DNA of 64,000 bases from Sphyrna mokarran. Its lineage: Eukaryota. Shown piece by piece: positions 1,466 to 46,690 of this stretch; position 1 is the stretch's first letter, and every line of letters starts with the position of its first letter. Below the pieces are notes generated by a model that did no database searches, was not told where the DNA came from, and saw only the letters and a program-made list of their open reading frames with translations. Location of the stretch: contig JAGIQG010000020.1 in assembly GCA_024679065.1 (NCBI GenBank), positions 21,390,001 to 21,454,000 on the forward strand. Reading direction: 5' to 3'. Made by a program: the position numbers and the translations under genes.

Positions 1466-1489
1466 ATCCTGCATGGCAGCTATATCGTG

Positions 1490-1701
1490 GTGTGGAGATG
1501 TCAGCATTGGATTAGGGTAAACAGTAAGAAGTCTCACAAAACCAGGTTAAAGTCCAACAGTTTATTTGATAGTAAACACCACTAGCTTTCTTGACTTTGC
1601 CTCTTCAGTCTTCACCTGTAAAATGCAGAGCCCTGAAAGCTAGTGGTGTTTGCTACCAAATAAACCTGTTGGACTTTAACCTGATGTTGTGAGACTTCTA
1701 A
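1490..1701. mobile_element. Penelope-derived palindromic insert (family P1)
   Basis: Inverted arms aagtctcacaa..ccaggttaaagtccaacag / ctgttggactttaacctgatgttgtgagactt. Flanked by a 10 bp direct repeat ctatatcgtg (1480-1489) / ctatattgtg (1702-1711). Confidence 0.75.
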
Positions 1702-1768
1702 CTATATTGTGCACAAGTTCAAGAGATTGGACAATGGTTGGCATGAAGTCACAAACATTTCAGATTAC

Positions 1769-2190
1769 GGGCTGATTCTTACCGAAAAATAGCAAAGCGT
1801 CAGGATGTGACTGATAACTGACGTGTTTCCCGTTGTCATGTTAAAGGGTGGGACCTAATCACGTTGGCAAAGCCAGGTACACCAAGATCAGGCTGCCCCA
1901 ATCAAACCCAGAAATAATCTCCCCATAATCTCGATAAATGCCATAATCTCCCTAGCCCAAGATCAACACCAGCATCCATCCACCCACGATCAAACACCAG
2001 CATCATCTCTCTCTCCTCCATTCCCTAACAGTCATTACTGCCATCATCCTCTCTCTCAACATCACGAGCAAGGAATGGGGAAATCACGGAACACGATCTA
2101 TTCAAAGCGAATCACATTCCTCAATTCTGTCCGGATTTTCAACTAATGTTGCTGTTTTCTTTGAAGAAAACCACAGGCTGAAAATTGCCC
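1769..2190. mobile_element. Harbinger-type non-autonomous DNA element
   Basis: Degenerate TIRs GGGCTGATTCTT...AAAATTGCCC and a C-rich internal low-complexity tract, as in other copies in the window. Confidence 0.5.
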
Positions 2191-2229
2191 CTTTCTGCCT
2201 TCATCCTTAAACAGAGAGGCTGTTTTCAT

Positions 2230-7380: not shown

Positions 7381-7384
7381 AGGT

Positions 7385-13828: not shown

Positions 13829-13937
13829 ATGCCAATGCACCCGGTGACTGCGACTTTAATGTACAGGGGGATTTACACCATCCCTGACATCCTCAGCAAC
13901 CAGGACCCTGTGGACATACCTGAGGATGAACTGGAAG
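13829..13937 (+). CDS. CABP7: CABP7 (calneuron-2) coding exon 1
   Basis: Translates MPMHPVTATLMYRGIYTIPDILSNQDPVDIPEDELE, matching the vertebrate CABP7 N-terminus (human MPFHPVTAALMYRGIYTVPNLL...VDIPEDELE). Ends at donor G|GTGAGT (13938); 109 nt, phase 1. Confidence 0.96.
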
Positions 13938-14949
13938 GTGAGTGCTATCCACACACTGTGTTAGCTACCAGGACGTGTTTGTTTGTGTTGGGGGTCTTTT
14001 TTTTTGCTACACCAGCAACCTCTGGTCTAGAACGGCGTTTGTCAATTTTTGAAAACTGTTGCTGGGAGAGCGAGCCCAGCTCTTTTCTCTGTACTTAGGG
14101 GAGAGGATTCTGACTGTGGAAATGTGTTGCTTGTGTGAGACAGTTGAGAGATGGAGTGAGTGCGTTAGAGAGAAGGTAAATATCTCCCTCGCCCCCCATC
14201 CATCAATATTGCTACAAAACACAGATGGGGCGAATGGAAAGCAAAGGCAGAGCTGATAGGAAAAAGGGGGCTGAGTCTTTGGGTTTGGGATGGAGCTCGC
14301 TTCTATAGTTTCCACTCGCTAATGGTGAGGAGGGGGCACCAGTTTTGCCCCCTTCTCCATATCCCGGTACCATTGCTTTTTATTGTTGGTGTGCCGCCTT
14401 ACTTTGGGGGGGGGGGCAGCTTGTACTGGAAGGCTAAATGTCCCTCGCCTCAGACATCAATCACCCCCTCAGATAATCTAATAGAGATTGAGAGCAATTC
14501 CCTGGGTGCATTAACACAGCCCTTGTTGTGCCAACGTGCGAACGTGTTGCTGGATCTCTGATTCATCTCCTCCGCACGCTGGGTAACTTTAGACAGTCAT
14601 GGAATATTTGTCATGTGTTTAAAGAGGTTGAAATGGTGAGATTCACGCTCCAGTAGCCCCATTAATAGTCTGCTGCTAATTATGCACAGGAATATCTGGC
14701 TAGGTCGCTTACTTCTTAGAGAATTTTGTCACGATCCGTCCCCTAAATTAGTTGCACACGGATTTGATCCTGAATCTGGTTTGTTAAAAAGTCAACCATT
14801 GGCAGGGAAAAGGAGCCGCGCTAGGTGGCTGCTATCTAAATTTTCCACTTAACTTGCCGAGAACCCCAACATTGTGAATGGAGTAAAGTACCCCGCGGGG
14901 CCAATCAATCTCAAATGTGACTGTCTGTAAACCTCGCTTCTCCCAACAG

Positions 14950-15093
14950 AGATCCGCGAGGCGTTTAAAGTCTTTGACCGCGATGGGAACGGGTACATCT
15001 CGAAGCAGGAGCTGGGCATGGCGATGCGATCACTAGGCTACATGCCAAATGAGGTGGAACTGGAGGTGATCATCCAAAGACTGGATATGGACG
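14950..15093 (+). CDS. CABP7: CABP7 coding exon 2 (EF-hand 1 and start of EF-hand 2)
   Basis: Acceptor cttctcccaacAG|, donor |GTAGGA; 144 nt. In frame with exon 1: [48 protein letters not shown]. Canonical EF loop [12 protein letters not shown]. Confidence 0.97.
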
Positions 15094-15574
15094 GTAGGAG
15101 GCAGAATGCAATTTCTTGCATCCTGGCACCCTCTTATCGGGGTGTCAGGATGATCACAATAACTGCTGCCTCAGATCGAAGCACATTGCAGGCTGGTACC
15201 ACAGAGTGTCTGTTTGCAGTTAGCTCCAGTAGAAATCATTGGTCTAAGATATGGCTTTCTTGTTACCTTCAGTTGTTGGGAAAATGTTTGCTGAATTTCT
15301 TTATTCCCCCCCCCCCGTCTCTCGCTTAAACCTTGGTCTTTTGCTGCATCAGAATCAGATCACATCTCAACCTGAGATTGCATTATATACAGCCAAGTGG
15401 GTGGTGGAAAGGTTCATACATAAAGATAACGGGGCTTGGGGAAGCAACAGATTTCACGTCAAAAATCTATCAAATTAATGAAACTAAACATAATTTCAAG
15501 TGCTGCATTATGCCCTAGTGTTGAGCGAACTACAGGTGGCACATAATGCACCATACTACCACTTTAAATCCATA

Positions 15575-15740
15575 CACTCCAAAGACGTGCAGGGTAGGTT
15601 TCTTGGCCACGTTAAATCGCCCCTTAGTGTCAAGGGGATTTGCAAGGTAGATAAATGGGGTTACGGAGATAGGGCCTGAGTGGTGGGTGCAGACTAGATG
15701 GACCGAATGGCCTTCTTCTGCACTGGAGGGATTCTATGAT
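15575..15740 (+). mobile_element. HE1-like V-SINE 3' part, tail type A (CR1/HER1-like)
   Basis: ccaaagacgtgcag...gaatggccttcttctgcactggagggattctatga. Confidence 0.8.
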
Positions 15741-15806
15741 TATCTGCTAGGTAGAATTGGCTGTCTTTCTAATGGAAGCAACGGTGGCTGCCTGCAATGT
15801 AAAATG

Positions 15807-15969
15807 GTTGTCATGATGTGGAGATGCGGCGTTGGACCGGAGTAAACACAGTAAGTAGTCTCACAACACCAGGTTAAAGTCCAACAAGTTTATTCAGTAG
15901 CAAAAGCCGCTAGCTTTCGAAAATAAAACTGTTGGACTTTAACCTGGTGTTGAGAGACTTCTTACTGTG
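15807..15969. mobile_element. Penelope-derived palindromic insert (P1)
   Basis: Inverted arms; 14 bp direct repeat tgcaatgtaaaatg at 15793-15806 and 15968-15981. Confidence 0.8.
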
Positions 15970-16654
15970 CAATGTAAAATGCCAGTATTGAGGAAGTGGA
16001 TCCGTAGCTCAGCAATCGAGATGAAGTGTATCTTTAGATACACTTGAAAGGCAGAGTATGAACTTGCCGGCGGTATAACAATCTCAGATAGTGTGAATTG
16101 TCCCCATATAATCTCCTCACGTCCAGGGTTAATTGCCCGGCCCCCCTGCACATTGAGGTTTTTGAAAATCCCGTCAAGCGATTGACTGGGATTTTAATGT
16201 CAAGAGGATAGCGAAGGTGCTGGAATTAGTCTCGGAGAAGGACTTTCCTAATGATCGAGGAAAGGGAATCTGAATTTACACCATTGTTCATCAACTCTGA
16301 GCAGCAAATTTGACATTTATTTGATTGTATTTAACATGTCCCCTTGCCTCTACCTCAACAGAGGGCAACTCTTACGTGCGTCACTGTATACTTATTCGTT
16401 TTTTTAACGTTGTGCTTTCCAGAAACTTGTGTACATGTTTGCGATGTTTTTTTTAAAGGATACTATTATAGCCCGTTCATGAGCTGGGGGTAATCTGTTA
16501 TATCGAATTGGTTGATAGGATAACATCAGACTGCTCTGTATGTTACAAGGCAAATGGGAGATGGGGCTACATACCACTGGAAATAAAGGGTGAGATTTGT
16601 TGAAGGGGAAATTTTGTTATTGATCAAAATGAAATTTCAGATCAAGACAACTTA

Positions 16655-17135
16655 AATTTTAAGTGTCAGAAGGAGGTTTACATTAACACTGTAGTGAAGT
16701 TTCTGTGAAAATCCCCTAGTTTTTTATTTGTGTAGCAAGTAGGCCTACATTAACACAGCAATGAAGTTACTGTGACAATCCCCTAGTTTTTTATTTATTA
16801 GCGTCCCAAGTAGTCTTACATTAACACTGCAATGAAATTTCTGTGAAAATCTAGTTTTTATTGGTTTCACAAGTAGGCTTACATTAACACTACAATGAAA
16901 TTTCTACAAAAATCTCCTAGTTGTCAGTCTGGTGCATATTTAGATACTGAGGGAAAATTTAGCATGGCCAATGCACCTAAACATCAGTCTTTTGAATTGT
17001 GGGAAGAAACCGGAGCATCTGGAAGAAACCCATGCAGACACACGTGTTAGATTCCGAGTGACCCACGCTAGGAACCGAATCTGGCTCCCTGGCCCTGAGA
17101 GGCAGCAGTGATAACCACTGTGCCACTGTGCCATC
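16655..17135 (-). mobile_element. HE1-like V-SINE, type B, with a four-fold tandem tail
   Basis: Four ~65-70 bp units containing tacattaacac..aatgaa.tt.ctgtgaaaatc(ccc)tag at 16660-16920, followed by the SINE body. Confidence 0.85.
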
Positions 17136-17714
17136 CTATACATGGGTGTGAGGGAGGAAAATAACACTCCAGAAGTCTGAGCTCTTCTTTTTGAGCTAGA
17201 TTAAGGTTAAGACCCTTACTCCAAGAAAGGGGAAGAATGTGCACAAACTGAAGGCAGACTTGATGATGGATAATCACTGCATTGACTGGAGATAATGGGA
17301 ATGTACAAACCAAAGGGAAAATGAAATAGAGATGGATTGGGAAGGATACTGCCAGGATGGGGTTGTGCCAACCTAGAACAGAAAGGCAAGACCAAAAAAA
17401 TCCATCAGAAAAATAAAGTTCTGTCCCACAGTGAAGGGAAAATCTACTGCATCTTCTCAAATTGAGAGATAGTAGCAGTTACAAACGAGCTAAGTGTGAG
17501 GGATTGCATCAAAAGCTCGGGTACGTCAGAAGCTCAGCCTCCTCCTACACTTGAATATCAATATTTTCTTCAGGAGAATTGAATGCTGAAGTGGGATCAT
17601 TGGAGACTATGCTCATAATGAGTAGAGGAAAAAGCTCGAAGGGCATCTGCTCCTACCTTCTATGTTTGTATGTTTCTATAAGACAAATGTGTGAAAGTGA
17701 GAGTTTCCCATTTC

Positions 17715-18100
17715 TGTAGCCTCATTTCTAGCACTCACAATGTCTCAAAGAGATGCAGAACCAATGAATGTAAAATAGATTTGTTGTACAACAGTCATCA
17801 GAAGGGTTGAATTTGTACACCCCAAGCTCCTTAGAGGAGAGAAGCGATTAGTTGATCCGCGTTAGCTGGCATTGATTCAGAGATGAGTGCTAGGCTGCAC
17901 GCTGAAATGACTCCTTTTCCCTTGGGAGAATGTTGTCGGATCTTCTGCTTCCACCCTCGGTTTAACAAAATTTATCTCAAAACACGCCGCATCTGACAGT
18001 GCGGCACTCCCTCCGTGCGTGCTGCACCAAAACATGCTCCAGTCCTGGTCCGAGGCTTGCACATTCATGATTCAGATGCAAGTGCTGGCGCCACGCCAGG
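17715..18100 (-). mobile_element. Old Deu-domain SINE (SacSINE1-like)
   Basis: cctcggtttaac..atctcaaaacacgccgcatctgacagtgcggcactccctc is the reverse complement of the Deu-SINE region gagggagtgctgcactgtc...gttaaaccgagg. Confidence 0.6.
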
Positions 18101-18222
18101 ATGATACATTCAGTGATAAGGCATCCCACTCTGTAGAAGCTGATTCGTGTATCACTGTAATTCAGCGAATCGCACGATCCCAAATTATTTGAACCCTCCA
18201 TTCTAGAAATGTGAGGGTATAA

Positions 18223-18658
18223 ATTTAAAATGCTACTTACTCGTGTTTACCGTGCGGACTTTCTAAGACGTATATTCAACACGAATCAATTAAATAAAAA
18301 TTGCCTCAGCTTTTTAGAAATCGGAGGCTCGCGTCTTTTGAGTGACTGAACAATAATCTACTTAATGTAGCGAGCAACCAGTGATATTAGGAGCATTTAC
18401 TCAGATGCCAAGACATAACTCTCGGCCTCTCTCCACTTGGTAAAGGGAACGCATGGAAACATCAGAATGGATCTTGCGTCCAGAGGCACTTGCGCCTCCT
18501 TTTACATTAATAACCGACATTAAGTAGATTATTGTTCAATCACTCAAAAGACATGAGCCTCCGATTTAAAAGAAACTGAAGCAGTTTTCATTTAATGAAA
18601 TCACAATGAATGTATGTTTTAGCCTGCATGGTAAGTATGGCTAAATAGTATTTTAAAT
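18223..18658. repeat. Long imperfect inverted repeat (foldback)
   Basis: 18318-18368 versus the reverse complement of 18517-18567 is 48/51 identical; similarity extends out to atttaaaat (18223) / attttaaat (18658). Confidence 0.92.
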
Positions 18659-18704
18659 GTCTATTATTGGCTCACAGTTACTTGAACCTCCTTGATTACT
18701 GAGT

Positions 18705-19027: not shown

Positions 19028-19054
19028 TGTCCTTTATCATTGGCTCCCAGGCAG

Positions 19055-27862: not shown

Positions 27863-27869
27863 AATGAGA

Positions 27870-29694: not shown

Positions 29695-30575
29695 TATTTT
29701 TCTTCATTAATAGGATGTGGCCATCGCTGGATAGGCCAGCATTTATTGCCCATCCTTAATTGTTAGTGAAATAGGTCTTGTGTCACAGTGATTAGTGTCC
29801 TTGCCTCTGAGCCAGGAGAGAGAGTGAATGTTTGTGGATGGGGTGCCAATTTAGCAGACTGCTTTCTCTGGATGAGTGTTCTTCTTGAATGATGTTGGAG
29901 GCGCATTCATTCAGGGAATCATATTCCAGGCTCATGCTTTGTAGATAGTAAACAGGCATTGGGAGTCAGGAGATGAGTTACTCACCATAGGACTCCTAGC
30001 CTCTGACCTGAACTGGTAGCCAGTATTTATATAGCTAGTCCAGTTCAGTTTCTGGTCCATGGTAACCTCCAGGATGTTGATGGTGGAGATTCAACGATGG
30101 TATTGCCATTGAATGTCAACAGGGCGATGGTTAGATTCTCATTGGAGATAGCCATTTTCTGTCAATGTGTGACACAAATGTTACTTGCCATTTGCAAGTG
30201 AAAGCCTGGATCTTGTTGAGATCTTGTTGCATTTGTACATGAACAGCTTCAATATCTGAGGATTGTGCAATCACCAGCAAACATGACCACTTCTGACTTA
30301 TGATAGAAGAAAGGTCATTGATGAACCAGTTGATGGTTGAATCAGTTGAAGACACTCTTGCTGTGGTGTTCTGAAACTGATATGATAGACCCCCACAACC
30401 ACAACTTGTAGTAGGTGTGATCCCAACCACTGACTCCGGTTTTGCTAGGACTACTTGATGCCTTGATGTCAAGGGCAGTCACTCCGACCTCACCTCTGGA
30501 GTTTAGCTCTTTTGCCCATGTTTGAACCAAGGCTGTAATGAGGTCAGGAGCTGAGTGACCTGAGCAGAACCAGTG
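29695..30575 (-). mobile_element. Fragment of the second CR1-group LINE
   Basis: GHSAPDLITALVQTWAKELNSRGEVGVTALDIKA and FINDLSSI..MQQDLNKIQAFTCKWQVTF; same 3' tail as 5550-5600. Confidence 0.8.
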
Positions 30576-31440
30576 CTCCAGTGTTTTCAACATGTATATT
30601 TTTTGGGATATGCCAGCCATATCATTTTATTACAGGAAGCCAAATGAATCCTGTTATTAATTTTCACTTATTTAATGCAGAAAAGTATGACAGAATCATA
30701 AAGGACTACATGAGCAGGTCTGTCAATTTAACTGTTTAAAAATATGTTCATATGTTTTAGGGTAAGGTTTGCAGAGTGAATGGCAAAATATTTGACATTT
30801 ATAGTTTGATGAAAAATTGCTTCAAAGGTTAATGGTGAATCATCGATAGATTGGTAAGATTGTACAGTATTTTCCCAATTTAGCTAAATTCAAAATTCAA
30901 TTCATTTGGATCAAATTGCTATATTTCCATCCACTGAGTTAGTGTTCGTTTAACCAAAAAATATATATATAGTAAACACAGTGGAGAGGATTGATGGAAA
31001 ACAATGACAAATGTTCCTCCTATTTTTTACTATTTACCCTGAGCCTTCCTCCCATGTGAAAATGTGTTTGGGAAATCATCAGTGGGAATGTTTACTTGGT
31101 GAGGACTATTAAAACTTTACAGCTGATTTTCATGTATCGAGAAATGTCAGGTCAAGATCTTCCGTCATGCTGAAACATTTTATGAACATAAACAACAATG
31201 ATTTAAATGAGTTCAAATAAATTCATTGAGCATGATTAAGCCTGCTATTTGCACTATGCTCCCACTGCAGCGAGGGGCGTCAGAGAATTTGGTGGCCAGC
31301 CAAATCTCCATCCACTGCTACCGGATGTGAAAATCCCTCCAGCATGAACAGTGCTAAGATTCCGCCCATGGATTCTGTAATTTGTATTTTATTCCCTGTT
31401 CATTGTAAATTTGTTTGCATGGGCCTTCTACTGTGGTCAG

Positions 31441-31662
31441 TCATAGAATTCTGCAGTGCGGAAGGAGGCCATTTGGCCCATTGAGTCTGTACCAACCACA
31501 ATCTTTTATCCCATAGCTCCACATATTTACCCTGCTAGTCCCCCTGACACTGGCAATCAACTTAACCTGCCCCTCTTTGGACTGTGGGAGGAAACCAGAG
31601 CACGTGGAGGAAACCCACACAGACATGAGGAGGACATGCAAACTCCACACAGACAATGGCCT
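31441..31662 (-). mobile_element. HE1-like V-SINE, type A
   Basis: Tail and V core present. Confidence 0.85.
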
Positions 31663-32008
31663 GAGTGATTGAAATGATCAGTATGACATGAACATCAGAG
31701 AGCTTTTTGTTTTATGTTTTTAAAACTCATGGAATATCAATGGTGCAACTATTAGCTTTCTTTCCATTGTAGTTGATCTTTTCATATCTGCTTTTCTGGT
31801 TGTGAAAACAACCAACGTTTCCAACATTTTCTCCAACTTTGAGCTAATGGACCATAACCCTTCCAGCTTAGCTATTGAATGCTAAAATTTCATTTCTTAT
31901 TTGCATTGATGCTATTGCTTCAAATATATATTATGCATCTGGCATGTCCTCAAATAGCTTTGACTTGTGCACATATTTTTTGTAAGGTTATTACTTCCTT
32001 AATTTCAT

Positions 32009-32144
32009 GGGGTAAATTTTCTGAAACAGCCCATCGGAGGAATCATTGTAGGTAGGACGGAAAATTTGGTGGACTATTTAAAATCGGTTGGCCGCGGGTA
32101 GGAATTTCCGGTCTTGGGGCAGGCGTTACTGGAAAATCCAGCCC
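32009..32144. mobile_element. Harbinger-type MITE
   Basis: TIRs GGGGTAAATTTTC / GAAAATCCAGCCC, flanked by cat/tat. Confidence 0.6.
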
Positions 32145-32372
32145 TATTTATCTGTATCACATCCCAAAAATACACCAAAACAACAGAAATAGATGCAGGA
32201 GCACACCCCCATGGCCTATCCAACCTGTTCTGCCATCCAATAAAATCATGGAAGATTTTGGGCTACAACTCCATTTTCCCTATATCCCTACCTATTTCTC
32301 ATATCCCTAAATTCCTTCTGAGACCAAAACTCTTGTCTATGCTAGCCTTAAAGGTATTTAACAACGGAGCAT

Positions 32373-33164
32373 TATGACATTAATATACCATTAAGGATTT
32401 TTTTTAAATCATGTTCTCTGAGGCTCTCAGCCTTCAGTCGGGCTGTCTGTAAGAGTCTTTTTATTGCTGCTTCGGTGATTTAATTGAGGCTTGTTTCTTT
32501 TTACTCTGGGTTGTTTTATGGCCCTGCATTGTTAGGAGGAACATTATAGGTTCTGGTCAGTTTTATTTCCTTTCTAGGGAATGCAAGGTTTTGATTTTCT
32601 GTTTTTGGCTGGTAGCAGTGTTTAGTTTAAAAGGGAATGGACATCAGATGGAAAGCAGTATCTCTCTCTCTCTCTCTTCTTGGGTTTTGGAGGTTCTGTT
32701 AATTAGCTGAAAACAACACTTCTTCCCTTCCTGCAGTAGAAAATCTGCTGTTGCGACTTGACCAGAGTCTCTCCCTGATGTCCTGGGAAGCTGTTCTGAC
32801 TTCAAACTGTTCTGAGTGTTTCAAGAGAACTATAGTATTCATCCAAAGGACTTAGTTCCAGTATCACATGAGTATTAGTCTTTGCTGAGTTAAACCTGTG
32901 GAAGGATTTTGTTTATGGGATTGGTTTGATTGGAACATTTCAGATTTATTTGTTAAAGGTTATACATTATTGTGGTTATTTTGTTTGTAATTGATAATAG
33001 TTATTGTTAATATTCTTACTATACATGTTAATCATATTCTTAAATAAACTTTGTTTGAGAAAAACTCCCTAGTGGGTCATTTGAATCATGCTTATCCTAG
33101 CCAAATTCAAGATGTAAAACGTATGATCCAGGCGGGCTCCATAAAACACTCCGGAGTTTCTGAC
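32373..33164 (+). mobile_element. LTR-like insertion within CR1
   Basis: About 790 bp unrelated block interrupting the CR1 tail; T-rich, (CT)n tract, AATAAA near the 3' end. No clear TG..CA termini. Confidence 0.4.
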
Positions 33165-33347
33165 CCTCCGGGATGGAGCATTCAAAAATTCACCATCCTT
33201 TGTGTGAAGTAATTTCTCTTCATCTAAATCCTAAATGACTGGCCTCTGATCCAGAGATGGGGCCTCTGTTTTAAACACCCCAATCTACAGAAACAATCTA
33301 TATCTGCCAAATCAAACCCCCTCAGAATTTTACTGTATTTGTTGCTA

Positions 33348-33639
33348 GGCAGCACAGTGTTACAGTGGTTAGCACTACTGCCTCACAGTGTCAGGGACCT
33401 GGGTTTGATTCCCAGCTTGGGTCACTGCCCGTGCAGAGTCTGCATGTTCTCTTTGTGTGTGAGTGTATTTCTTCTGGGTGCTCTAGTTTCCTCCCACAGT
33501 GCTAGTTAGGTGCATTGGCCAGGCTAAATTTTCCCACAGTGTATCTGAACAGGTGCCAGAGTGTGGTGACTAAGGGATTTTCACAGTAACTTCATTGCTC
33601 TGTTAATGTAAACCTATTGTGACACTAATAAATAAACTT
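33348..33639 (+). mobile_element. HE1-like V-SINE, type B (full length)
   Basis: ggcagcacagtgttacagtggttagcact..gggtttgattccc head, V core and type B tail. Confidence 0.9.
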
Positions 33640-34047
33640 AATGTGGCCTCCTTTTCATTTGGAAGACTTAATGCAGATTGTGTGACCACTTTGTGGAACA
33701 CCTTTGTTCTGCCTACCTGTCCCCACCCTTCCAGTCGCTTGCCATTTTAACTCAGCATCTTGCTCTTATACTCACTGGTCTTTCCTCGGCCTGCTGCAAT
33801 GCTCCAATGATGCCCAATGCAAGTTGGGAGAACAACATTTCATCCTCTGATTAGGCATGTTACAGCCCTCTGGAGTCAACGTTGAGTTCAACAACTTTAG
33901 ACTTTCTCCTCCATCGTGACCCCCTTTTTGTTTTTGGTTTCCTCGGTTTGTCCCAGTACATCCCCATCCATTCCCCAGCCAGCTATCTCTCCCTTGTTTT
34001 TAAGTTTTGCTTCTATTGAGCACTGACTTTTGTTCTGTTATTAACAC

Positions 34048-34134
34048 GATGAGGTCACACGACACCAGGTTATAGCCCAACAGGTTTATTTGAAGTCACC
34101 AAGCTTCAGGAGCGCTGCTCCTTCGTCTGGTGAA
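34048..34134 (-). mobile_element. Single-arm Penelope P1-variant insert
   Basis: Flanked by gttattaacac (34037-34047) / gttactaacac (34135-34145). Confidence 0.75.
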
Positions 34135-34366
34135 GTTACTAACACATTTTGCTCTCTTATTTTGTGCACTATTAGCACTTCTTCAGCCTGTAATGCCATT
34201 ATTTACACCCACTTTGTCTTATGCCCATGACATAATTGTTAATCTCTCTTTAGCTCCAATCTATCTCTGCCTTCCATTCTGCCCCACCAACCTCTCCAAT
34301 TATAAAGTTCATTACGTCTTTGTCCTCCTTCAGTTAGTAGAAGGGTCATAACAGATTCAAAACATT

Positions 34367-34507
34367 GGGGGGAGTTCTCCCGTTGCACTCGCCACAGGTA
34401 TTGTAGTGGGTGTGGGGTGGAGGGGGTGCAGCGGACTATGCAAAGATCCATTGACTTTGAGTGGGATCCTCTGGTTTTGAAGCAAACGTGGCTGCAGAAT
34501 CCTACCC
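34367..34507. mobile_element. Harbinger-type MITE with 3 bp TSD
   Basis: att|GGGGGGAGTTCT...AGAATCCTACCC|att; removing it restores the P2 terminus aaaacattaac. Confidence 0.7.
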
Positions 34508-35246
34508 ATTAACTTGATTTCTCCCTTCATACATACTGTCAGACCTGCTGAACTTATCCATCATTTTCTGTTTCTATTTCGAACTTAGATCATCCGCAGT
34601 ACTTCGCTTCTATTTACCCTGTGGAATTTTGTAGCTTTCAATGAGATCTCCTTTTGTTCTTCTAAACTCTAAGTACATGGGCCCAATTTATTTGACTTTT
34701 CATCATAGGACAGCTCCCTCCTCCCAGGGCCTAATCATGTGAATCTTCAACCTCCAATACATATATATTGTTCTTAAATATGAAGACCAAAACCGCTCAT
34801 TGTATTCCAGATGTGGCCTCACCCAAATAGCCAAATATGAAATTCAGAGGGTAATGTTGACTTTAGGAAGAAAACATTTCTATCATCTAGTGCATATTTC
34901 ATTTATTCTCACTTTGGAACGACTGTTTACAACATCTCCTTGTCCTTCTTCAGGTCATAGAATTGCAAGGCATTAAAATTTCCTGGATCCTGTGGATCTA
35001 ATATATTGCCAGGCAGGTTTTGAGACAAAAAGGCAATTTGGCAACCAGGAGAGAGGGCTCCAGCTTCCAGCAGAAGGAGAGTTCTCTTCAGGCCAGATGT
35101 GTCTCTTGGCTAAAACCCATCAATAAGAATCTAGATTAAGTTGTTGTCCATGAGTAAATATGGCACTCCATTCAAAATTTGCCATCTCAGATACAAAGTG
35201 TATGCCCTGCAAGAAATTTTAAATAACTGAGGAAACTCTGAGACTT

Positions 35247-35560
35247 GGGGCAACTTGATGGCAGTGTGGTTAACACTGCTGCCTCACAGCATCAGGATTC
35301 AATTCTAGCCTTGGGTGATTGTGCAGAGTTTGCATATTCTCCCTGTGTCTGCGGGGGGTCCGGGTGCTCCAGTTTCCTCACACAGTTCAAAGACGTGCAG
35401 ATTAGCTTGATCGGTCATGCTGAGTTGCCCCTTAGGGTCAGGGAAATTAGCAGAGTAAATATGTGGGATTATGGCAATAGGATTTGGATGGGATTGTCAT
35501 GGGCGCAGGCTCGGTGGGCCAAATGGTCTCTTTCTGCACTGTAGCGATTCAATGATTCTA
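35247..35560 (+). mobile_element. HE1-like V-SINE, type A (full length, TSD)
   Basis: TSD tgaggaaactctga(g)actt at 35228-35246 and 35561-35578. Confidence 0.9.
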
Positions 35561-35928
35561 TGAGGAAACTCTGAACTTGAGAGGAAAACAGCTGTAAGTT
35601 GTGACCTGGAGATTGGTTACGGAAGCGTACTCATCTATTCAAGACTCAGTGAATATTGCGATTTCATTGCAAAGAATCAAGCAGATGCACCTGGAGTTCA
35701 CCAAGCAAAAGAAGGATTTTATAATAGGATATGGTAATATGTATATATGGTATATATTATTACATGGTATATATAAAACTCCCTCAGAGAATGATGGTGA
35801 TGCATTCACAGATATTATACTGAATTGTGCTATTCGAAATTTGTCTGTAAGGTGCTTCTAACACCTGCTGCCCTTCAAGAAAGGTAAAATTTGCACTTGT
35901 CAGCTGTCTGCCAGGAAATAAACACCAT

Positions 35929-36995
35929 GGCTAGGATTCTCCCAAAAAATTTCAAATCCCCAATTTGCAGAAAAATGGGAGTAACTCCCATTGCTTTTCT
36001 AACATGATTTCCACAGCGAATCTTTGACGCTCTGTGCATTACACAATATCTCAGCGAGATTTTGCCTTGGGGGGTGGGGGACATATTCCCGCTTGAGAGG
36101 CCAACAATATGGTGCTGAGCGGATCATTGCACATGTGTCAACCTGTCAGAGCAGAGAGCAGCACATTCACACTGGGTTTGCACTGACGGCCTCCCGATCG
36201 CTGGGTAGTCCCACAACTCCCCATTCTGAATCCTCACCCCCCCCACCCCACGATCACTGGCCTCCCAAACCTCCCTGGACCAGCCCTGATGTCCTCCCTC
36301 ATGACCAGCCCCAATCTCCCTGGCCCCATTTCCCACTACCATCTTGGCTAGCCCCGATCTCCTGACTCCCGATCCCCATCCCCAACAATCCCCACCCAGA
36401 TCAGCCAACCTGGATCGCCATCCTCCCTCCCTCCAGCCTGCAATCCCGAGTGCAGACTGGCAGCAGAACCCCCCCCCCCGCCACCCCCACCTATTGTCCA
36501 GTTAGTAGGCCCCATTTCTGCTGTCCCCATCCTCTTGGCACTGCCTGATGCCTAGTGGTCAGTGCCCAGGTCCCCTTTGGCAGTGCCAGTTTGACCCTTG
36601 GACAGTGCCAGGGTGCCAGGCAGGCACTGCCACACTGGCACTGCCCAAGGGGCACAACTCCTCCCACTGCCAACTTCCTGTGGGAGGCCTCAGTGGCTTC
36701 TGTTAGCTCCAGCAACGTGGGCTGCCTGTTCCCCGTTTGTAGGGAGCATGGGTAAACCCTGTTGGAGTGAAGCATTCCTGGCTGGGAAGGAGACATGAGC
36801 AGGCCCAGAGACTTCAGTTCTGCTAATGACATGGAAATCCTGATTTCCGGCATGGAGTTGATTATTCTCAAAATCTTTGTCACAAAGACTCACAGAGGCC
36901 ATGGTGTCCAGTGGGAAGCCTGTGAAACAGCCCCTGCTGATGTCTCCCAGCCTGCTTTGCTGCTCGAACACTGCAGTGGGCTGGAATAATCGCCC
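35929..36995. mobile_element. Harbinger-type non-autonomous element with C-rich interior
   Basis: Ends ggctaggattctccc / ggaataatcgccc; GC-rich interior with ggcactgcc/ggcagtgcc motifs. Confidence 0.55.
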
Positions 36996-37219
36996 CCCTC
37001 TCCATTTTTTTGGATCCAATATCAAAATGGCTCCAAGAATACACGCTTATGGTGAAAGCTTATACCCAGTTCATCCTCTTGAATACTTGTACAGCAGTAC
37101 TGAATGATTATTCATCTCATCTGGCTCACTAATTCAAATTGGAGAGGAAGGTTTGTTGTTGGAGACAGGATTACGTTCAAGATAACCCTGAAAGCCAGTG
37201 TCCCAAAACATAGGGACAA

Positions 37220-37526
37220 TCATAGAATCGCTCTGTGCAGTAATGAGGCCATTTGGCCCATCAAGCATGCACCAGCAACACTACAGCACTATCGCCCTAA
37301 CTGCATGTATTTACTCTGCTAATCCCCTCGACAATAAGGGGTAATTTAGCATGGCTAATCCACCTAACCCCCCCCACATCTTTGGAGTGTGGGAGAAAAC
37401 TAGAGCACCCAGAGGAAATCCACACAGACATGGGGAGAATGTGCAAACTCCACACAGGTCGGAATTGAACTCAGGTCCTTAATGCTGTGAGGCAGCAGTG
37501 CTAACTACTGTACCATTGTGCCATCC
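37220..37526 (-). mobile_element. HE1-like V-SINE, type A
   Basis: Tail, V core and head present. Confidence 0.85.
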
Positions 37527-38324
37527 TAAATTGAGAAACATCATTCTCTGCACAGGTACATGGCACAGCTTTGGTTGACGGAACTCTAGTTCGATCATTG
37601 CTCACAGTTGGAGTGTCTGTATTAATCTGCTTAAGCTATTGCAGGTCTGTCAACCTGTATTTGAATTGGCTGGACCTTGGGTCAGTATGATGTGCCTTGG
37701 GCTGTTTTCAGTCTGTTAAAGTCCACCATATAATTAAAAGTTGTTACTGGAGATATCCCTAAGGAAAGAGAGTGGGTATATAGATTGATCCAAACAGAAC
37801 TCTGCAAGACGATATAGAATGCTAAGTAACTTGAATTAGAACAATCTAAATGTGATGCACATCAGAAACCTGATTGGCCAAACTTTTCAAAATACTCTTC
37901 TTCATAACAGAAAAATGAGCGCAGGTAAAAATTGAGTTCTTTATTTTCTATTTATTTCTATTTTAAAAGTTAATCAATTTAGTGCATATTTATTTGTCTA
38001 ACAATATAATGCTTCAAATAAAATACTCCTGCACCATATAGTTGCAGTGTCATTATTTATTTAAATATAAATGTACTACAATTGCTTCTATATTTATATA
38101 TTTGCTAAAGTCTTCTTTAGAATAGAAATTCAATGATGCAGCTCCCATTTTGGGGATCTAAATGGCCACCTAAACTTCCTAAGTGGCAAGGAAATACAGG
38201 AGCTGAAATATCCAGCCATATTATTAGTTCAGGTAAAGCAAAAAAGCATTTGGGGCCAATGCTTGAAATTTACATATCCAAATCAACCTTGTTTGAGGCA
38301 TCCTGTGTAAAACTGGGTTTCATT

Positions 38325-38730
38325 TATTTGATTTTGATTTATTATTGTCACATGCATCGATGTAGTGAAAAGTATTGTTTCTTGTGCGCTAATCACACAA
38401 AGCATACCATTCATAGAGTACGTAGGTGAGAAGGAGAGTAGAGGGTGCTGAGTGCAGTGTTACATTCATAGGCAGTGTGTAGAGAAAGATCAACTTAATA
38501 TAAGTTAGGTCAGTTCAAAAGTCTGATGGCAGCAGGGAAGAAGCTGTTCTTGAATCAATTGGTACATGACCTCAGACTTTTGTATCTTTTTCCCAATGGA
38601 AGAAAGTGGAAGAGAGAATGTCTGGGTGCTTGAGGTCCTTGATTATGCTGGCTGTTTTTCTGAACCAGCAGGAAGTGTAGACAGAGTCAATAGGTGGGAG
38701 ATTGGTTTGCGTGATGAACTGGGCTACGTT
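38325..38730 (-). mobile_element. Rex1/Babar LINE 3' end
   Basis: KTASIIKD..HSLFHFLPLGKRYKSLRSCTN*FKNSFFPAAIRLLN on the minus strand. Confidence 0.85.
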
Positions 38731-39884
38731 AAATATACATAATGCACGTGATTGTTGAGACAGGAGAAATAGGAATGCTTCATCTCACCCTACATTGAAG
38801 CTGGATTGAACTCTGTTGCTCCAAATTTCCAACAACCTTACCATAAATTTCTAGGCCTTTATCCTACAGTAATAAATTCTAGTAGCTCATTTTCAGTGAG
38901 CAGAGGGATGCTCATAAATTGTTATTCTCATTAAGGAATAGCACCAGGATGTAGAATTTAAAAAAAACTCAGTCAATAATCTTGCCTGTTTCCCTTGAAA
39001 GATTAACAAGTATTTTAAGCTTTACGGGCGTTAAAGTGTGCTAATATTAAATGCAGGATCTACATTCCCTATTTATCAATGTGATTGTGTTTAACTTCTA
39101 CCACATTTCATTTGATCCCATGTGTGGACATTTTCAACTTCCATCTCTTTCAACTATTAAATGGTTTGGACCACTTACTACCATATATCTTTATTAAGCT
39201 GCAAGGTATTCTCCACAAATCATTGTTGCTTCATGATTAGCTGTCAGGAGGCACTGTTTAAGTAGGACAGCTACATGATTTTCTTATTCCCCTTAAGATG
39301 GGAAATCTCATTATCACATTACATTCTAACTTATAACCTAGCTGAGAATGGACAAAGCTTACCTGGTTGATATACCTTGTTTGCCCGAGAGAAAAAAAGT
39401 AGATTTTTACCTCAGAATGGAAGTTAGCAGGGTTTCTTTCTTCTATTTTTCTAATAACTTCATCGGGTACATGTGGTGATCAATCTGCAGAGTAAAGATC
39501 ACATGAGCCAGGGAACCAACCGGGGAGCAGGCTGGGGGATGACCCTGATAATCTTGGATTTCTGCTCCTGAACCTTCTCGGGAGCCAAATGCAGCCAGAG
39601 GCTGCAAGCCTTTGTATTGTCTTTACCTGTAAATAAATATGTTTTTTCCCTAAACTGGTGAACATGAATCATTCCAGTACTTTGAAAGGTATGGTCTTAC
39701 ATTGAGCCAGAAATTTCTGCCAATTCAACAGCACTTTTAGTATTCGCAGCAATATCATTAAGGAAAAGTGAGCTTGTGAGTTGTAAATCATCATAAATTG
39801 TTAGACAACTTGAGCTTCTCCCTCTTTAGATTCACAAAAACAGCAGCTTGCCTCAATCGTCCTATGATTTTGGCTCATTTTTTA

Positions 39885-40215
39885 ATTGATATATTCATGG
39901 AGTGTGAATTTCTTACAGAGCAATATTTATTGCCAATCCCTAATGCCTTTGAAGGTGATGGTGAGCTATCACCTCGAACCTCTCCAATGCTTGCAGTCTA
40001 GATACACCTGTTAGAAAGGGAGTGCTACGTTAGGGAACCCAAACTGAGTATCAGTAAACAGGTTATTGCTGAGTAAGTGCCACTTGATAGTATTGTCAAC
40101 CCCCCTTCCATCATTTAGTTGATGATCAAGAGTAGATTCTTGGGGCAGTAAAAGGCTGGTTAGGATTTGTTCTGCTTTGTGTGGACATGACACATTTCCA
40201 CATTGCTGGGTTGTG
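39885..40215 (-). mobile_element. Fragment of the second CR1-group LINE
   Basis: IKWHLLSNNLFTDTQFGF and a decayed tail (atttattgccaatccctaatgcc). Confidence 0.6.
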
Positions 40216-42350
40216 CAATGATTGAAAATTAAACTCACTAAAAGTTAAGTCTGGTGACTAAGTAATGTGAAGATACTTAGAATGACAAGCTGTAGTTCTT
40301 CTGCAATACTACTAACTATAGCATCTCACTCTTGCAGGCAGCAAATTGTTCCTGGAGTTTTTAAAATGTATAATGTTTTTTTTCCTTTCAGTCTGCTTTT
40401 CATTTTCTCGTTTAATCTAATCTTTCCTTTGCATTATTTATATCTTTCTAATTGATTTGACTCTAAATCCTCCTCCTTTTAAATGTCATTGATTAAGGAG
40501 AGAGACTGTTCATCCCACTGTTCACTCAGGTCCCAGACGCTCTGTTGCTCTCAACTCAATTTAACACTTCCAGAGTGAGGGGTAAAGTGTAATTATAATG
40601 GAATTTCCCGTGAGAAGCCCTACTCCAACAAATTCTGGGCCATTTTCAGGACACATTCATTCTTTCCTGTTCCACTAACTTTTTTTTCAGATTGAAAACT
40701 AGCTTTATTGGTTCAACTTACACCTGAATTACATTTGAACATATTCAGAGTCAAATTAGAACAATTGTCTACAATTAAATTATAGTTTGTCACTTACATT
40801 TTGCAGCACAGTACAAACGCCTGACCTTGTCAGTGCAAATCCAAACACAACGTATTCAAATGGCTGAATGTAAAAAAAAGTATGCCAAAATTCTACACAT
40901 TGTTATTCTTCAAATAAAAAGGAATGTTACCCTCTCATTTTCCCATCTTCTTCCTCTTTCTCAACTCCTCTGATGTACAGGATATTGTTGCACCTTATTA
41001 GAACTTCGCCAAGGTGACCCGCTAAATTATTCATGTATTGCTGAATAAGAGATTGTGATTTTTTTTCAATTTAGTTCACATTATGGTTTCAATATCAGAA
41101 CATGTGAAAGTCCCGGCTAACCGGAAATGAGCTACAGTGACTTTGTGATGTAAGATAAAAAGTATGTCAAATGTAATTATTACAAATCTCTGTGGATACT
41201 AATAACGTGAAAGAACTGAGCTTCCCAAATGACCTCATTGGAAAGATCAAATGGCGCAGATTTCACATTTTAAGACATTTACTGCAACAAACAAACCAAA
41301 ACCAACATAGATTAAGCATGGACCAACAGATAAATTGTACTAAACAGAAAATGTAAATTACAATTCTATATAGCTGATAAGACAAAGGTACATTTCACAC
41401 ATGGACAGTCCACTTGGTGTATGTGGCACTAACTTCAGCCACAAAGTCCTTTAAGAACTCTGAATGTTCTCCAGTTCCTTTCCTTTCAATACTTAGTCCG
41501 ATCCCTAGCTGACTATATCACTCAACCAATCTCAGTTCTATGGGCACAATTACCAGTAAAATGACACACATATGCAGAACTTCCTCAACTTTGCCCACAG
41601 TGGTCTTGACAGTGTACATCCACCAATGCTATTTTCAAGTAACAGAAACAGTCACAGCAACTGTATACTCATCTCTTCTCAGCTTCTGGATCCAATATCC
41701 ATCATCTTCAGTCTGCCCATACCACTGGGATCTGAGTGCTCTACTGGCCATGTATCTTTTTATCTACTTTCAAACATGTCAGTTTCTATTTCCCTCTCAG
41801 CTTTCCTGGAAAACTCAAAGTTCAGTTTCCCTTTCAGTTGACTGGAGTTTGCAATTCAGTTCCAATTAGAGTCTATCTGAAAACACAGGCTATTGCCAAC
41901 AAACAACTTGTGAACTATGGATTTCACCACATACTGTAAAAGCAATTAAAGTTTATTTGCAGTTGAACAGATATAATTGGATTACATATACACGGTAGAA
42001 AACCCTTTGAAGTATTTGGTTATATTATAATTAAGTTTTGAGCAGAATTATTTTTAACAGACAGAGCCCGGCAGAAATCTGAGCGCAGGAACAAGCTGGG
42101 AAATGGACAACAGTTGCCTTCCGTATTGAACTGCCAACTGCTGCCATTGGACTTCATCAACCCTTCCAACTCCAATGAGACCTAACCTACTTTCATCTTT
42201 GCTTATTGAGAAAACAAACTTCTCCTTAAAAGTCAAAACTTCACCATCATTAGGAAAAGTTAATGATGTCAAAAAGCCTAATATTGGCCTGATTTAAGAA
42301 AATAATTTAAAATTACTGTTTAGCATTGAAGAGGACTTGCTTTAGGCTGT

Positions 42351-42445
42351 GGGCTGGAATCCTCCATTCTCACGTTCTCAGCCAAATCTCCATTCACTAT
42401 AGTGGGACCGAAGAATCCCAGCTGCGAGTGAGATTGGAGAATTCC
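42351..42445. mobile_element. Harbinger-type MITE
   Basis: gggctggaatcctcc...ggagaattcc; interior gccaaatctccattcact shared with 31240-31367. Confidence 0.5.
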
Positions 42446-42465
42446 AAAAAGGCTGGCACTGGATG

Positions 42466-42770
42466 TGACAGCACAGTGGTGCAGTGGTGAACACTGTTGC
42501 CTCACTATGCCAGAGACTTGGGTTTGATTCCTGGCTTAGTGAGTGAGGAGTTTGCACATTCTCCCTGTGTCTGTATGAGTTTCCTCTGGGTGCTCTGGTT
42601 TCTTCCTACATTCCAAACATATGCAGGTTAGGTTAATTGGCCATGCTAAATTGCCACTTAGTGTCAGGATGATTAGCAGGAAAAATACGGGGGGTTACAG
42701 GGATAGCACCTGCGTGGGATTGATGTTGGTGCAGGCTTGATGGGCCAACTTCTGTACTGTTGGGATTCTA
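42466..42770 (+). mobile_element. HE1-like V-SINE, type A
   Basis: Head, V core and tail ctgtactgttgggattcta. Confidence 0.85.
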
Positions 42771-44017
42771 TTTGTTGACTGCAGCGGTTCTTCTAGAAGG
42801 AAGCTCATCACAACCTTCTCAAGGGCAATTAGGGATGGGTAATAAATGCTGACTTAGCCAGTGGCTTCCACTTCCAGTGAATGAATATTTTTTAAAGAAC
42901 AAGCTGGTTTGGGAGAGAGATGTTAATTTCTTTCGAACCTTAGTCCCAGAATTTCCTCTCCTTTTTAAACTGATATAGTCATTTAAAGACTACATGACTT
43001 ACTTTGCTCTATTTTATAGAGTGCATGGATATCTCTGCTTTGGGCATAGTTGGCCCAGTTGGATCCAGATGCAAGTTTTGACTGAAATTGCGCTGGTTTT
43101 CAGAATTTTCTTTTACACAGGTTTCTGTTCAAATTTATTTGCATATCACAGAATGCAAAAACTACCATAATTTTGTGCAAAATTTTATAACATAATTATT
43201 TGTTTAAGAATTAAAATTGCTTTAAAAAGTATTCTTTGATATAGTTGTAACTTGGTGCAGTTTTATTCAGACCGGAAAATGGGTTTATTACAAAACATAA
43301 ACATTATTAATATCAGTATGTATGAAATAACCTAATTTTAAATAACTGAAAATGTGTTTTAAAAATCTATACAGAATAATTTGTTAATTATACAGATGTA
43401 CAGCAGTCAGTTTCTTAATAAATGTGGAAAAAAGTAGTTTTGAAACTTGTCTATTATCAGCATCCTTGCACTTAAGAGAATCAGCTTCATTTTAAGACAT
43501 TCCCTTGTAGGCATGCAAATTAGCAGAAGGTTAAAATGCTCATTAACTTTCTCATGCCATTTGATCACTTTTGCAGATAGAGTCAATTTCTAGTGCAGCG
43601 TTTTATCAAACTGGCAAAGAAAAGGCATTTTGTGCTTAATTCTGTGTTCTTTTGCACTAGTTTAACCAATTTCCAGTAATTTGAATAAATTAACCAGCAC
43701 AAACTAGTGGAAAGGCAAAAGTCCCAACTCTTCGGAAGAATGAATATTTATAATGTCTTATGGATATTATTTACCATGGTTATGCAAAACCAGAAACTCC
43801 ATTTATATAGCATATTCAGTGCATATTAAAAAAAATTTGGGGTTCACAATTGAGATTTTGGAGGGTAGAATATTGAACTACAAGGAGTGGGATGATTTAA
43901 AGGGCTGGTTTGAGTAGTTTTTTTTAAAGTGGGGTCGGGGGAGGAAGAAATGAAGATTTGGTGGGTTTTAAGGAAGGAGTCTTCAGCTTGTAAGATTGAA
44001 GACTGGGTGCAATAATG

Positions 44018-44300
44018 GGGGTAAGAACTCTCACAACACCAGGTTTAAGTCCAACCAATTTATTTGATAGTAATCCCACAAACTTTTGGAAACAGTGTTC
44101 CTTTGTCAGGTAAGTGGAAGGTTCTGATCAGAGAAAAGCATATAAAGACACACACAGTTAAGTCCACACACCTGACGAAGGAACATCATTTCCAAAAGCT
44201 TGTGGGATTGCTACCAAATAAACTGGTTGAACTTAAACCTGATGTTGTGAGACTTCTTACTGTGTTTACCCCAGTCCAACGCCAGCACCTCTACATCATT
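44018..44300. mobile_element. Penelope-derived palindromic insert (P1)
   Basis: Inverted arms around a ~55 bp spacer; the right arm carries cacctgacgaaggaa..ttccaaaagcttgtg. Confidence 0.8.
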
Positions 44301-44551
44301 CAATAAAAGGATCAGGGAAGGAGTGATCAAAAAGTCAAAATCAAAGCCATAATTATATTTATTTTACATATTAATAGCTATCTGGTAATCAAGAATAGTG
44401 TTCAGAAAGACTTAAAGTGATTAATCTTGGACTCTGAAGTTGAGTTATATAATCTGATTCTGCTCCGAAGTCAAGGCTGTACGTCACAATCTTTGCATCT
44501 ACTTTTCTTTGGTTGCTGAACAGTTACTGATAGCTAATAATCAGGTGAAGT

Positions 44552-44822
44552 TTTAAATTTACTTATTAGTGTCACAAGTAGACTTACGTTAACACTGCAA
44601 TGAAGTTATTGCGAAGACTCCCCTAGTTGCCGCACTCTGATGCTTGTTCGGGTACACAAAGGAAAAGTTTAGCATGGCCAGTGCACTTAGCCAGCACAAT
44701 TTTTGGATTGTGGGAGGAAACTAGAGTACCCAGAGGAAACACACGCAATGTGCAGACTCCACGCAGCAGTGACTCAAGCTGGGAATCGAACTTTGAGGCA
44801 GCAGTGACGACCACTGTGCCCA
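44552..44822 (-). mobile_element. HE1-like V-SINE, type B
   Basis: Type B tail and V core present. Confidence 0.85.
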
Positions 44823-45164
44823 TGTGGGGTTTTGAATGCGAGTGAAAGCTTCAGCTTTGCTTGCAGTCCAAGAGTACTTGTCAAATATGATCTATTTCTT
44901 CCTTTTCTTGTAATACTAATGGTCAACAAACTGAGAGGACTGCCATCTTTTTGCTTAAAATCCAGCCCACTTTCATGTTATAAAAACTCCACCATTTGCC
45001 ACATTTAAGGATCCAGTGAGATGTGAATCCAACCATTTCAACCCAGGTTTGGATCAAATGCCTGGAGCTTAGTTTAAAAAAAACACTTGAAATCTCACTG
45101 CGAGGAACTAGAAGCACAGTTGATGCAGAAAATGAAAACATTTCCATAGAACCATAAAATCAAA

Positions 45165-46690
45165 TTATAGAATCCCTACAGTGCAGAAAGAGACCATTTG
45201 GCCCATTGAGTCTGCACCTATTCTCAGACAGAGCCCACCATCTGGTCCTACTTCCTCCTCTATTCTCGGAACTCCACACATTTATCCCACTAATCCCTCT
45301 AACCTACACATCTTTTGGATACTAGGTGGGAGGGGAAGGGGCAAGACAAGCCGGTAAGATTGAACGAGAGCCAAGAAATCAGGTTTGCCTCGATTTATTG
45401 CAATCTTACCAGCATTGGATATCTGGCAAGGTCAGCTTTGCAGCCATTTCCAATTCGAGGCCGAGTAAATTATTTCAATTTATTTTAAACGTATTTTGCA
45501 TTGATTTAATGAGCTCAGGATGATATCATCCGGGCTCACACCTCTGTGACCTTGCGTGAGATGTTTTCTCCAGCGAGATTATAGCTAGTGCCCAGCAACG
45601 CGGACCAGTTGTGATGGTCTCACCATTGATGCTTCCGGGAAGAGGTCATGGCAAGGCGGGGTGCCAGCCTGAAATTCTGCCATTGCCCCCCTGGGCACAC
45701 TGACGTTGTTCACTGGGCATCTTGGCACTATTCACAGTTATGCCCAGGGGATGAAGCCTAAGAATTTTGGGGCTTATGGTGTGGGGCAGGGACTACAAGG
45801 AGGATAGTTGGTGGTGGTGGTGGTGGGGGGTACTATACACCTTGCGTTGGGATTGGTAGTAGGAGGAGGGGGAACCTGTTTCGACTCTGCATAATCAGTG
45901 GAAGAAGGGAGGGGGATGATCGTGGCTGGTCATGGGGTGGGGAATCAGGCAGCCGACTGTCGCAGAGGATGGGGAAGGGAGAGGGGGATTGGTCCGTGTG
46001 GTTGCAGCCACGGGCCTCTATCAAAGCTGGTGGGGTGGCCATGTTTGTGAGGCTGGGAGCTTTGTTTCTCATGATGTGGAGATGCCGGTGTTGGACTGGG
46101 GTAAACACAGAAGTCTCACAACACCAGGGTAAAGTCCAACAGGTTTATTTGGTAGCAAAATATAGTGGCTTTTGCTACCAAACAAACCTGTTGGCTTTAA
46201 CCTGGTGTTGTAAGACTTCTTAATGTGTTTTAGCTGTGCCATGGAGACTGGCTATGAGCAGCAAAGGTAGATTGTTAGATCTCTGCTGCTAGAGACTTGT
46301 GCATGCGTATTAGTGCTCTCTGCTGTTCTCAACCAGCGTTCAGGGACTTAAGCCCCACACCCCTCCCCTACAGAGAAGAAACCATTTCATGCTCTGAGTG
46401 CATAAAATAGCAGCTTTGAACTCACCCAAACAGATCAGAACTCTCCTGTTTTCCTGCCTGTCCTGGAGTTAGAATCCTTTTGTTAAGATTGACCCAGAAG
46501 GGTCAATTTCGCATAGCCAATCCGCTTAAGCTGCATATCTTCCTCCACTGTGGGAGGAAACCAGAGCACCTGAAGGAAACCCATGGATTTACAGGGCAAA
46601 CATATAAACTCCACACAATCGCCCAAAGCTGGACTCAAACAGAGGTCCCTGGCGCTGTGAGGCAGCAGTGCTAACCACTGTGCCACCCAT
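45165..46690 (-). mobile_element. V-SINE type A split (45165-45325 and 46498-46690) by a ~1.17 kb GC-rich insert
   Basis: Tail half and head half join at ggatactagg / aagggtcaattt. The insert resembles the Harbinger-type elements and holds a P1 palindrome. Confidence 0.7.
46070..46232. mobile_element. Penelope-derived palindromic insert (P1)
   Basis: aaagtccaacaggtttatttggtagcaaaa / ttttgctaccaaacaaacctgttggcttt inverted arms. Confidence 0.8.

Follow-up and report, generated by a model that had tools for sequence, protein, structure and literature searches.

The locus and its inserts

The window analysed here, 64,000 nucleotides of the 2.77-Gb genome of Sphyrna mokarran (positions 21,390,001-21,454,000), contains a CABP7-like gene and six short inserts, all of which are members of one repeat family (D17; profile matches).

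13829..58700, + strand: CABP7-like host gene; start codon at 13829, exon 2 at about 14946-15092, exon 3 at about 58575-58700
1490..1701: insert, head-to-head arms, tail on the left arm; hammerhead remnants on both arms
1608-1580, - strand: hammerhead remnant of the 1490 insert; core letters retained, stem II and 5' stem I gone
1612-1646, + strand: hammerhead remnant of the 1490 insert; 5' half of the core damaged
1480-1489/1702-1711: possible duplication at the 1490 insert, 10 bp, one mismatch
15807..15967: insert, head-to-head, tail on the left arm; ribozyme reduced to its GAAA-GC-TA half, on the - arm
15793-15806/15968-15981: target duplication of the 15807 insert, exact, 14 bp
18705..19030: insert, head-to-head; hammerhead spanned by both arms, with C at G12 in both; predicted single long hairpin
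18941-18977, + strand (sense to the host gene): decayed minimal hammerhead, G12>C and A15.1>T
about 34043-34134, - strand (antisense to the host gene): single 5'-truncated arm with decayed hammerhead
34037-34047/34135-34145: duplication at the 34048 arm, 11 bp, one mismatch
44020..44298: insert, head-to-head, tail on the right arm; hammerhead spanned by both arms, arm complementarity 87%
44169..44204, + strand: decayed minimal hammerhead, a lone G12>A change of CpG type
44075..44109, - strand: decayed hammerhead in the partner arm of the 44-kb insert, G8>A and G12>A
46071..46226: insert, head-to-head, tail on the left arm; arms start at or after the cleavage region and have no core

Exon 2 of the host gene matches calcium-binding protein 7 (PDB 2lv7) at 46 of 48 residues. 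Five of the six inserts lie in intron 2, and that at 1490 precedes the start codon by 12 kb, so that the placement of the inserts within the CABP7 pre-mRNA by the first-pass annotation holds for five of them, while the 1490 insert may fall outside. Intron 2 also carries, in sense orientation, a 480-aa open reading frame (52256-53698, + strand; RVT_1 match, E 4e-37), which we take to be a young CR1-type LINE. A SINE-like end of 63-71 bp stands in four tandem copies at 16654-16930 (families D11/D12).

The same annotation had described six palindromic inserts of one element. All six are present and five are head-to-head pairs, but the insert at about 34043-34134 is a single antisense arm, and within the one repeat family there are several subfamilies differing in stem II sequence. 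The 10-14 bp duplications that had been noticed at three of the six inserts were recovered, the 11-bp one by eye, the best match of our script at that place being a different, T-rich one. The flanks of the 46071..46226 insert, which we also examined, showed no clear target duplication.

The hammerheads face outward and are decayed, as had been proposed. Indeed, 44169-44204 reads CAC CTGACGA A GGAA CATCAT TTCC AAAA GC TT GTG, a single G>A away from an intact core, stems I and II are paired at 18941-18977 with CAAT in place of GAAA, and 1635-1646 reads GAAAGCTAGTGG, all in agreement with the earlier description. None of the window arms passes the minimal-hammerhead descriptor. The claim that every copy has been inactivated must nevertheless be qualified for the 15807 and 46070 inserts, which are truncated more than mutated, since no more than the 3' half of the ribozyme is left in them. 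An Rfam scan of the window gave no hammerhead family at E<=5 and only weak miRNA-like hairpin matches. Isolated window motifs are predicted to fold at about -11 kcal/mol, and the whole 44-kb and 18.7-kb inserts to form single hairpins of -137.3 and -174.6 kcal/mol, respectively (z about -15). The rare G12>C of the 18.7-kb insert is common to both arms (18780-18826 and 18941-18977), for which template inheritance or gene conversion are possible origins. Downstream of the ribozyme, every arm has an AATAAA hexamer (44206-44215 in the window, and equivalents), and through its sense arms the intron therefore acquires a potential poly(A) signal.

The hammerhead motif across the genome

The reconstructed consensus core has 304 exact matches in the genome, against 0 for the reversed pattern, which bears out the CUGANGA/GAAA/UH consensus drawn earlier from the window arms. 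A pattern keeping all core letters with limited stem II variation gave 2,968 matches, and one allowing CpG decay 7,188. The family shows the order of a minimal type I hammerhead (CUGANGA, GAAA and UH, with stems I and II) and, as was also suggested, a palindromic one-pair stem III; this layout agrees with that described in the accessible part of PMC4209133.

Stem II co-varies between subfamilies, A-U, C-G and G-C pair types being all present. Of 93 arms, 59 could be aligned by anchoring them on the two core boxes, with no alignment fitted to the structure. In these, the partners at 10.2, 10.3 and 10.4 can pair in 88, 90 and 69% of cases, against 76, 56 and 49% in shuffles that ignore relatedness, and slid controls were also exceeded. 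Pairs 10.1 and 10.5 did no better than the shuffle in these 59 arms.

A young subfamily (L223-L250 and L253-L270) has a smaller hammerhead, in which the core is kept and stem I measures 2-3 bp; one of its variants has a stem II of 3 bp, and in another the two arms both form a G-U pair at 10.1-11.1. Its N7 is A or G, and may differ between the arms of one insert.

According to the accessible parts of the papers concerned, PLE (Penelope-like element) minimal hammerheads cut poorly, as dimers or with the aid of protein (PMC4209133; PMC11167929; PMC6765202); they show no cleavage as monomers and little as dimers (PMC4209133), or depend on the element's own protein for cleavage (PMC11167929).

The parent element

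Relatives of the window arms continue into an ORF with reverse transcriptase (RT) and GIY-YIG domains, which supports the Penelope origin put forward from the window alone. In locus L071, a 659-aa open stretch (1796-3772) contains RVT_1 (E 5e-10) and GIY-YIG (E 3e-4, barely under the cut-off). In these relatives outside the window, a single ORF that precedes the repeat end encodes the RT and, C-terminal to it, GIY-YIG, which is the order expected of an endonuclease-bearing (EN+) PLE. The L071 linker, CHSNLCKTC, reads CX4CX2C and falls under the CX2-5CxxC definition of PMC8557442, and a CCHH-type motif is found in VVYLIRCKKGC...YIG with histidines downstream. A CCHH finger between GIY and YIG together with such a linker is given, in the accessible part of the same paper, as the Neptune/Nematis signature. 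Judged by sequence, then, what the window holds are the 5'-truncated ends of a Penelope-like element, called Neptune-type here on the strength of its linker and CCHH motifs.

The window copies themselves contain no ORF sequence. Remnants of the endonuclease ORF end lie upstream of window-type arms in L011, L018 and L001, and window-type loci match L071 at about 80-83% across 2 kb. Among the fetched loci there was no full-length element with a 5' end, the longest open stretch being that of 659 aa, and, with regard to a direct pseudo-LTR upstream of the ORF, nothing conserved was seen beyond the tail. A search of the genome for the GIY-YIG family (PF01541) gave 0 matches; the parent ORF came from the fetched introns.

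Architecture of the inserts

In the window and 1.6 Mb of fetched introns, which together gave 84 inserts, 55 are arranged head-to-head, and in 49 of these 55 pairs the tail is confined to one arm. The 3' ends of the arms form two peaks about 35 nt apart. Duplications of at least 10 bp flank 28 of the 55 pairs, against 2 of 55 control flanks. Arm lengths are within 15 nt of each other in 25 of 49 pairs; in the others the longer arm is the tail-less one in 13 and the tail-bearing one in 11. The length of the arms is continuous, from less than 100 nt to more than 2 kb reaching into the ORF. This continuity and the one-arm tail point to truncated insertions of an autonomous element, as published for Penelope, and not to the separate non-autonomous element that the first reading had postulated.

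One 3' motif has 3,149 exact matches in the genome. Among the first 100 matches listed, a hand count found 25 pairs, of which 13 have 60-124 nt between motif matches and none 125-312. The centres of 18 young short hairpins, picked as short pairs, are all different, so that these look like separate insertion products and not like one mini-element copied.

Decay of the ribozyme

Three large multi-exon regions (the 1.6 Mb fetched) were oriented by the strand of their Sushi or LDLa (Pfam) exons, and sense and antisense arms compared, in a small sample confined to introns. Ribozyme-spanning arms number 45 sense and 42 antisense. All core letters are intact in 16 sense and 10 antisense arms (p=0.25; odds ratio 1.75, 95% CI 0.63-5.1), and 5 sense and 3 antisense arms are descriptor-competent (p=0.71). 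Single arms give the same picture (14 vs 14 in total, 10 vs 11 motif-spanning, 2 vs 2 competent), and G12>A is found in 13/45 sense and 16/42 antisense arms. No sense deficit was thus seen in the 1.6-Mb intron sample, which excludes only a large effect and is compatible with a modest one.

CpG-type losses make up 43 of the 83 core substitutions, G8>A accounting for 14 and G12>A for 29. The core is intact in 44 of 46 arms of the young subfamily, a rate inflated by the choice of this set by similarity, and in 26 of 87 arms of the unselected intron sample. At the rate of the latter sample, to find all three motif-spanning sense arms of the window non-competent has a probability of about 0.75, and to find all six ribozyme-spanning window arms without a full core one of 0.12. 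In 28 of the 45 sense arms the partner arm, which lies upstream in the sense transcript, also covers the motif. A comparison of C>T and G>A at CpGs, considered as a selection test, was dropped because the active subfamilies themselves vary at N7 and 11.1. Neutral CpG mutation is the most likely cause of the wear of the motifs, and CpG decay together with hairpin masking would account for the pattern.

We put at roughly 85% the probability that the stubs are 5'-truncated ends of a Neptune-type Penelope, mostly joined head-to-head with a tail on one arm, and that their hammerhead motifs were worn down afterwards, neutral CpG mutation being the likeliest cause.

Proposed insertion mechanism and A>G-marked copies

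We infer the mechanism on the model of the accessible part of PMC11167929, starting from the truncation, inversion, one-sided tail, duplication, CpG-dominated decay and strand symmetry observed here. The RT/GIY-YIG protein would nick both target strands, 10-15 nt apart. Uncleaved element RNA would be reverse-transcribed from each nicked end, with priming at one or the other of two internal sites that are about 35 nt apart, and the resulting pair of short cDNAs would then be joined via their 5' ends. The ribozyme would be under selection in master elements, where it probably cuts as a dimer or with the help of protein, and be a passenger in the stubs. There G8 and G12, which lie in CpGs in many subfamilies, would be lost first by methylation-driven deamination because of that location. 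In an intron, the partner arm is transcribed earlier and is predicted to cover the sense ribozyme by base pairing.

The 18 young short hairpins bear on the template. Their arms span the predicted cleavage site in 35 of 36 cases and none begins within 2 nt of it, which is consistent with an uncleaved RNA template. Furthermore, their arm starts end at -22 relative to C3, six arms lying at -20 to -22; the empty interval of 125-312 nt among the matches listed argues that this limit is not an artefact of having selected short pairs. It may correspond to the RNA 5' end (a transcript start) or to a splice boundary. In L253-L270, the 5' limit of the arms, 22 nt upstream of the core, adjoins an acceptor-like TTGCAG.

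Three young head-to-head inserts carry 25-43 A>G changes in element sense on both arms, with an ADAR-like neighbour bias:

L071:506-4219
L251:3573-8038
L252:4376-6098

In L071 (G000:C1104, about 106.72 Mb), 32 of 98 A positions in 350 nt are changed to G, with 4 other changes. At the edited sites, a T on the 5' side is over-represented (p=0.0005) and a G there is under-represented (p=0.02), which is the preference of ADAR. A search seeded with the L071 copy gave the two further marked inserts among 27 (L224 and L237 being one insert). The marks are common to the arms of one insert (34/36-37, 25/25-26 and 26/28-43), and 8-16 are common between inserts. T>C changes number only 0-2 per arm in the marked inserts, which argues against copying of the inverted arm from an RNA arm that was itself inverted. 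Both arms of L071 are marked at A15.1 and at the base that follows A9, and the ORF stop codon is hit too; since a copy with A15.1>G in both arms was still inserted, cleavage in cis would not be needed. At the edited locus, two contig runs cover 4 of 30 bins in an assembly check.

Such copies are rare, the unselected rate being one insert in 204 arms. There is no general A>G excess (0.030, against 0.030 for T>C; 204/219 arms); the A>G outliers are two arms of one insert, and T>C at p<1e-3 was also found in two arms, both highly diverged overall. No arm of the window is hyper-edited. Two observations argue against a simple one-RNA model, namely a second A>G cluster that L252 carries on one arm and not on its partner, and a few recurrent positions that differ between the arms of unedited inserts.

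On balance we lean, at somewhat better than even odds, to the view that the stubs record Penelope insertion in a vertebrate germline, with both arms copied from one uncleaved RNA whose 5' end lay about 22 nt upstream of the core, and which was sometimes hyper-edited by ADAR beforehand, RNA edits thus being inherited as DNA, with no need of cleavage in cis.

Alternative explanations

The first-pass annotation had raised the possibility that the host removed or inactivated cleavage-competent ribozymes lying sense in introns, such as CABP7 intron 2. All three motif-spanning sense arms of the window are indeed non-competent, and the G12>C of both 18.7-kb arms is not a CpG-type change. However, the former has a probability of about 0.75 at the rate of the intron sample, and sense arms in the 1.6-Mb introns, single arms included, are neither fewer nor more damaged than antisense ones. 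Moreover, the partner arm would mask 28 of the 45 sense motifs, and the published PLE hammerheads are inactive as monomers and weak as dimers (PMC4209133) or protein-dependent (PMC11167929), as far as the accessible text of these papers goes. We therefore regard host selection as very improbable. We give hardly any credence to the idea of a self-propagating, non-autonomous hairpin family of the retrozyme or MITE kind, moved in trans, in spite of the distinct short size class (13 of 25 pairs at 60-124 nt and none at 125-312 among the first 100 matches listed) and of the ability of PLE ends to act in trans (PMC3846280, accessible part). Many copies of a single unit with identical ends and junction would then be expected, or else tandem arrays; the 18 young short hairpins have 18 different centres, arm lengths are continuous, and animal retrozymes are tandem direct repeats in the accessible part of bioRxiv 10.64898/2026.07.22.740005. 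A pre-formed hairpin RNA would also give T>C on one arm, whereas the A>G marks are in element sense on both.

The second arm could also arise, everything else being as in the preferred explanation, if the first cDNA folded back at a short palindrome and primed its own copying, in place of a second priming on RNA. Self-priming from palindromic junctions has been proposed in PMC3846280 (accessible part), the near-symmetric centres of 25 of 49 pairs fit fold-back as well as two primings, and A>G marks common to both arms fit it too. Against this, the tail-less arm is the longer one in 13 of the 49 pairs, and in L252 it is this longer tail-less arm that has the second A>G cluster, absent from the overlapping tail arm; neither can be obtained by copying a tail-primed cDNA. 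Fold-back is thus possible but rather unlikely, and we prefer two primings on RNA.

Relation to known systems

The inverted copy, the one-sided tail, the target duplication and the minimal hammerhead are all published Penelope features. The finding is in itself ordinary, a shark-like case of published Penelope traits, and its value is methodological. Thousands of young copies, as the 3,149 exact 3'-motif matches indicate, make the Penelope insertion cycle testable in silico via arm ends, junctions and A>G marks, and this record of the insertion mechanism is the part worth pursuing. A literature search of titles and abstract starts returned no paper on this shark family or on A>G-marked germline PLE copies, which does not establish their absence from print.

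The comparisons that follow refer to the accessible parts of the cited sources. The metazoan PLE type I hammerheads of PMC4209133 have the same CUGANGA and GAAA cores, the extra base between 9 and 10.1, the G10.1-C11.1 pair and a short palindromic stem III, and they also occur as many sequence families per genome and as opposite-strand pairs 100-700 bp apart; the stem II of 3-6 bp found here differs from theirs. No cartilaginous fish is named among them in the accessible text and two supplement files of that paper. Non-LTR retrozymes have been reported from one chondrichthyan genome (bioRxiv 10.64898/2026.07.22.740005); like our stubs, animal retrozymes are short, non-coding, PLE-derived and hammerhead-bearing, but they form tandem direct arrays, whereas our stubs are dispersed, occur singly or inverted, and have unique junctions.

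The likeness to Poseidon of Anolis, studied in vitro (PMC11167929), lies in a tail set by two internal RT start sites, in the cutting and extension of both target strands, in the use of uncleaved RNA as template and in the insertion of ribozyme mutants. Poseidon belongs to another clade, and the evidence presented here (the 5' limit about 22 nt upstream and the A>G marks) is in vivo and indirect. Finally, the complex insertions of EN+ PLEs (PMC8557442, PMC3846280) share 5' truncation, an adjacent inverted truncated copy, a tail of 30-40 bp at one end, a target duplication, a pseudo-LTR hammerhead and the Neptune/Nematis-type linker and CCHH motifs. Unlike them, the window copies have no ORF sequence, the duplications mostly measure 10-16 bp, where the rotifer paper gives 8-10 bp, and the short hairpins are very dense, with 120 arms within 1.6 Mb of introns.
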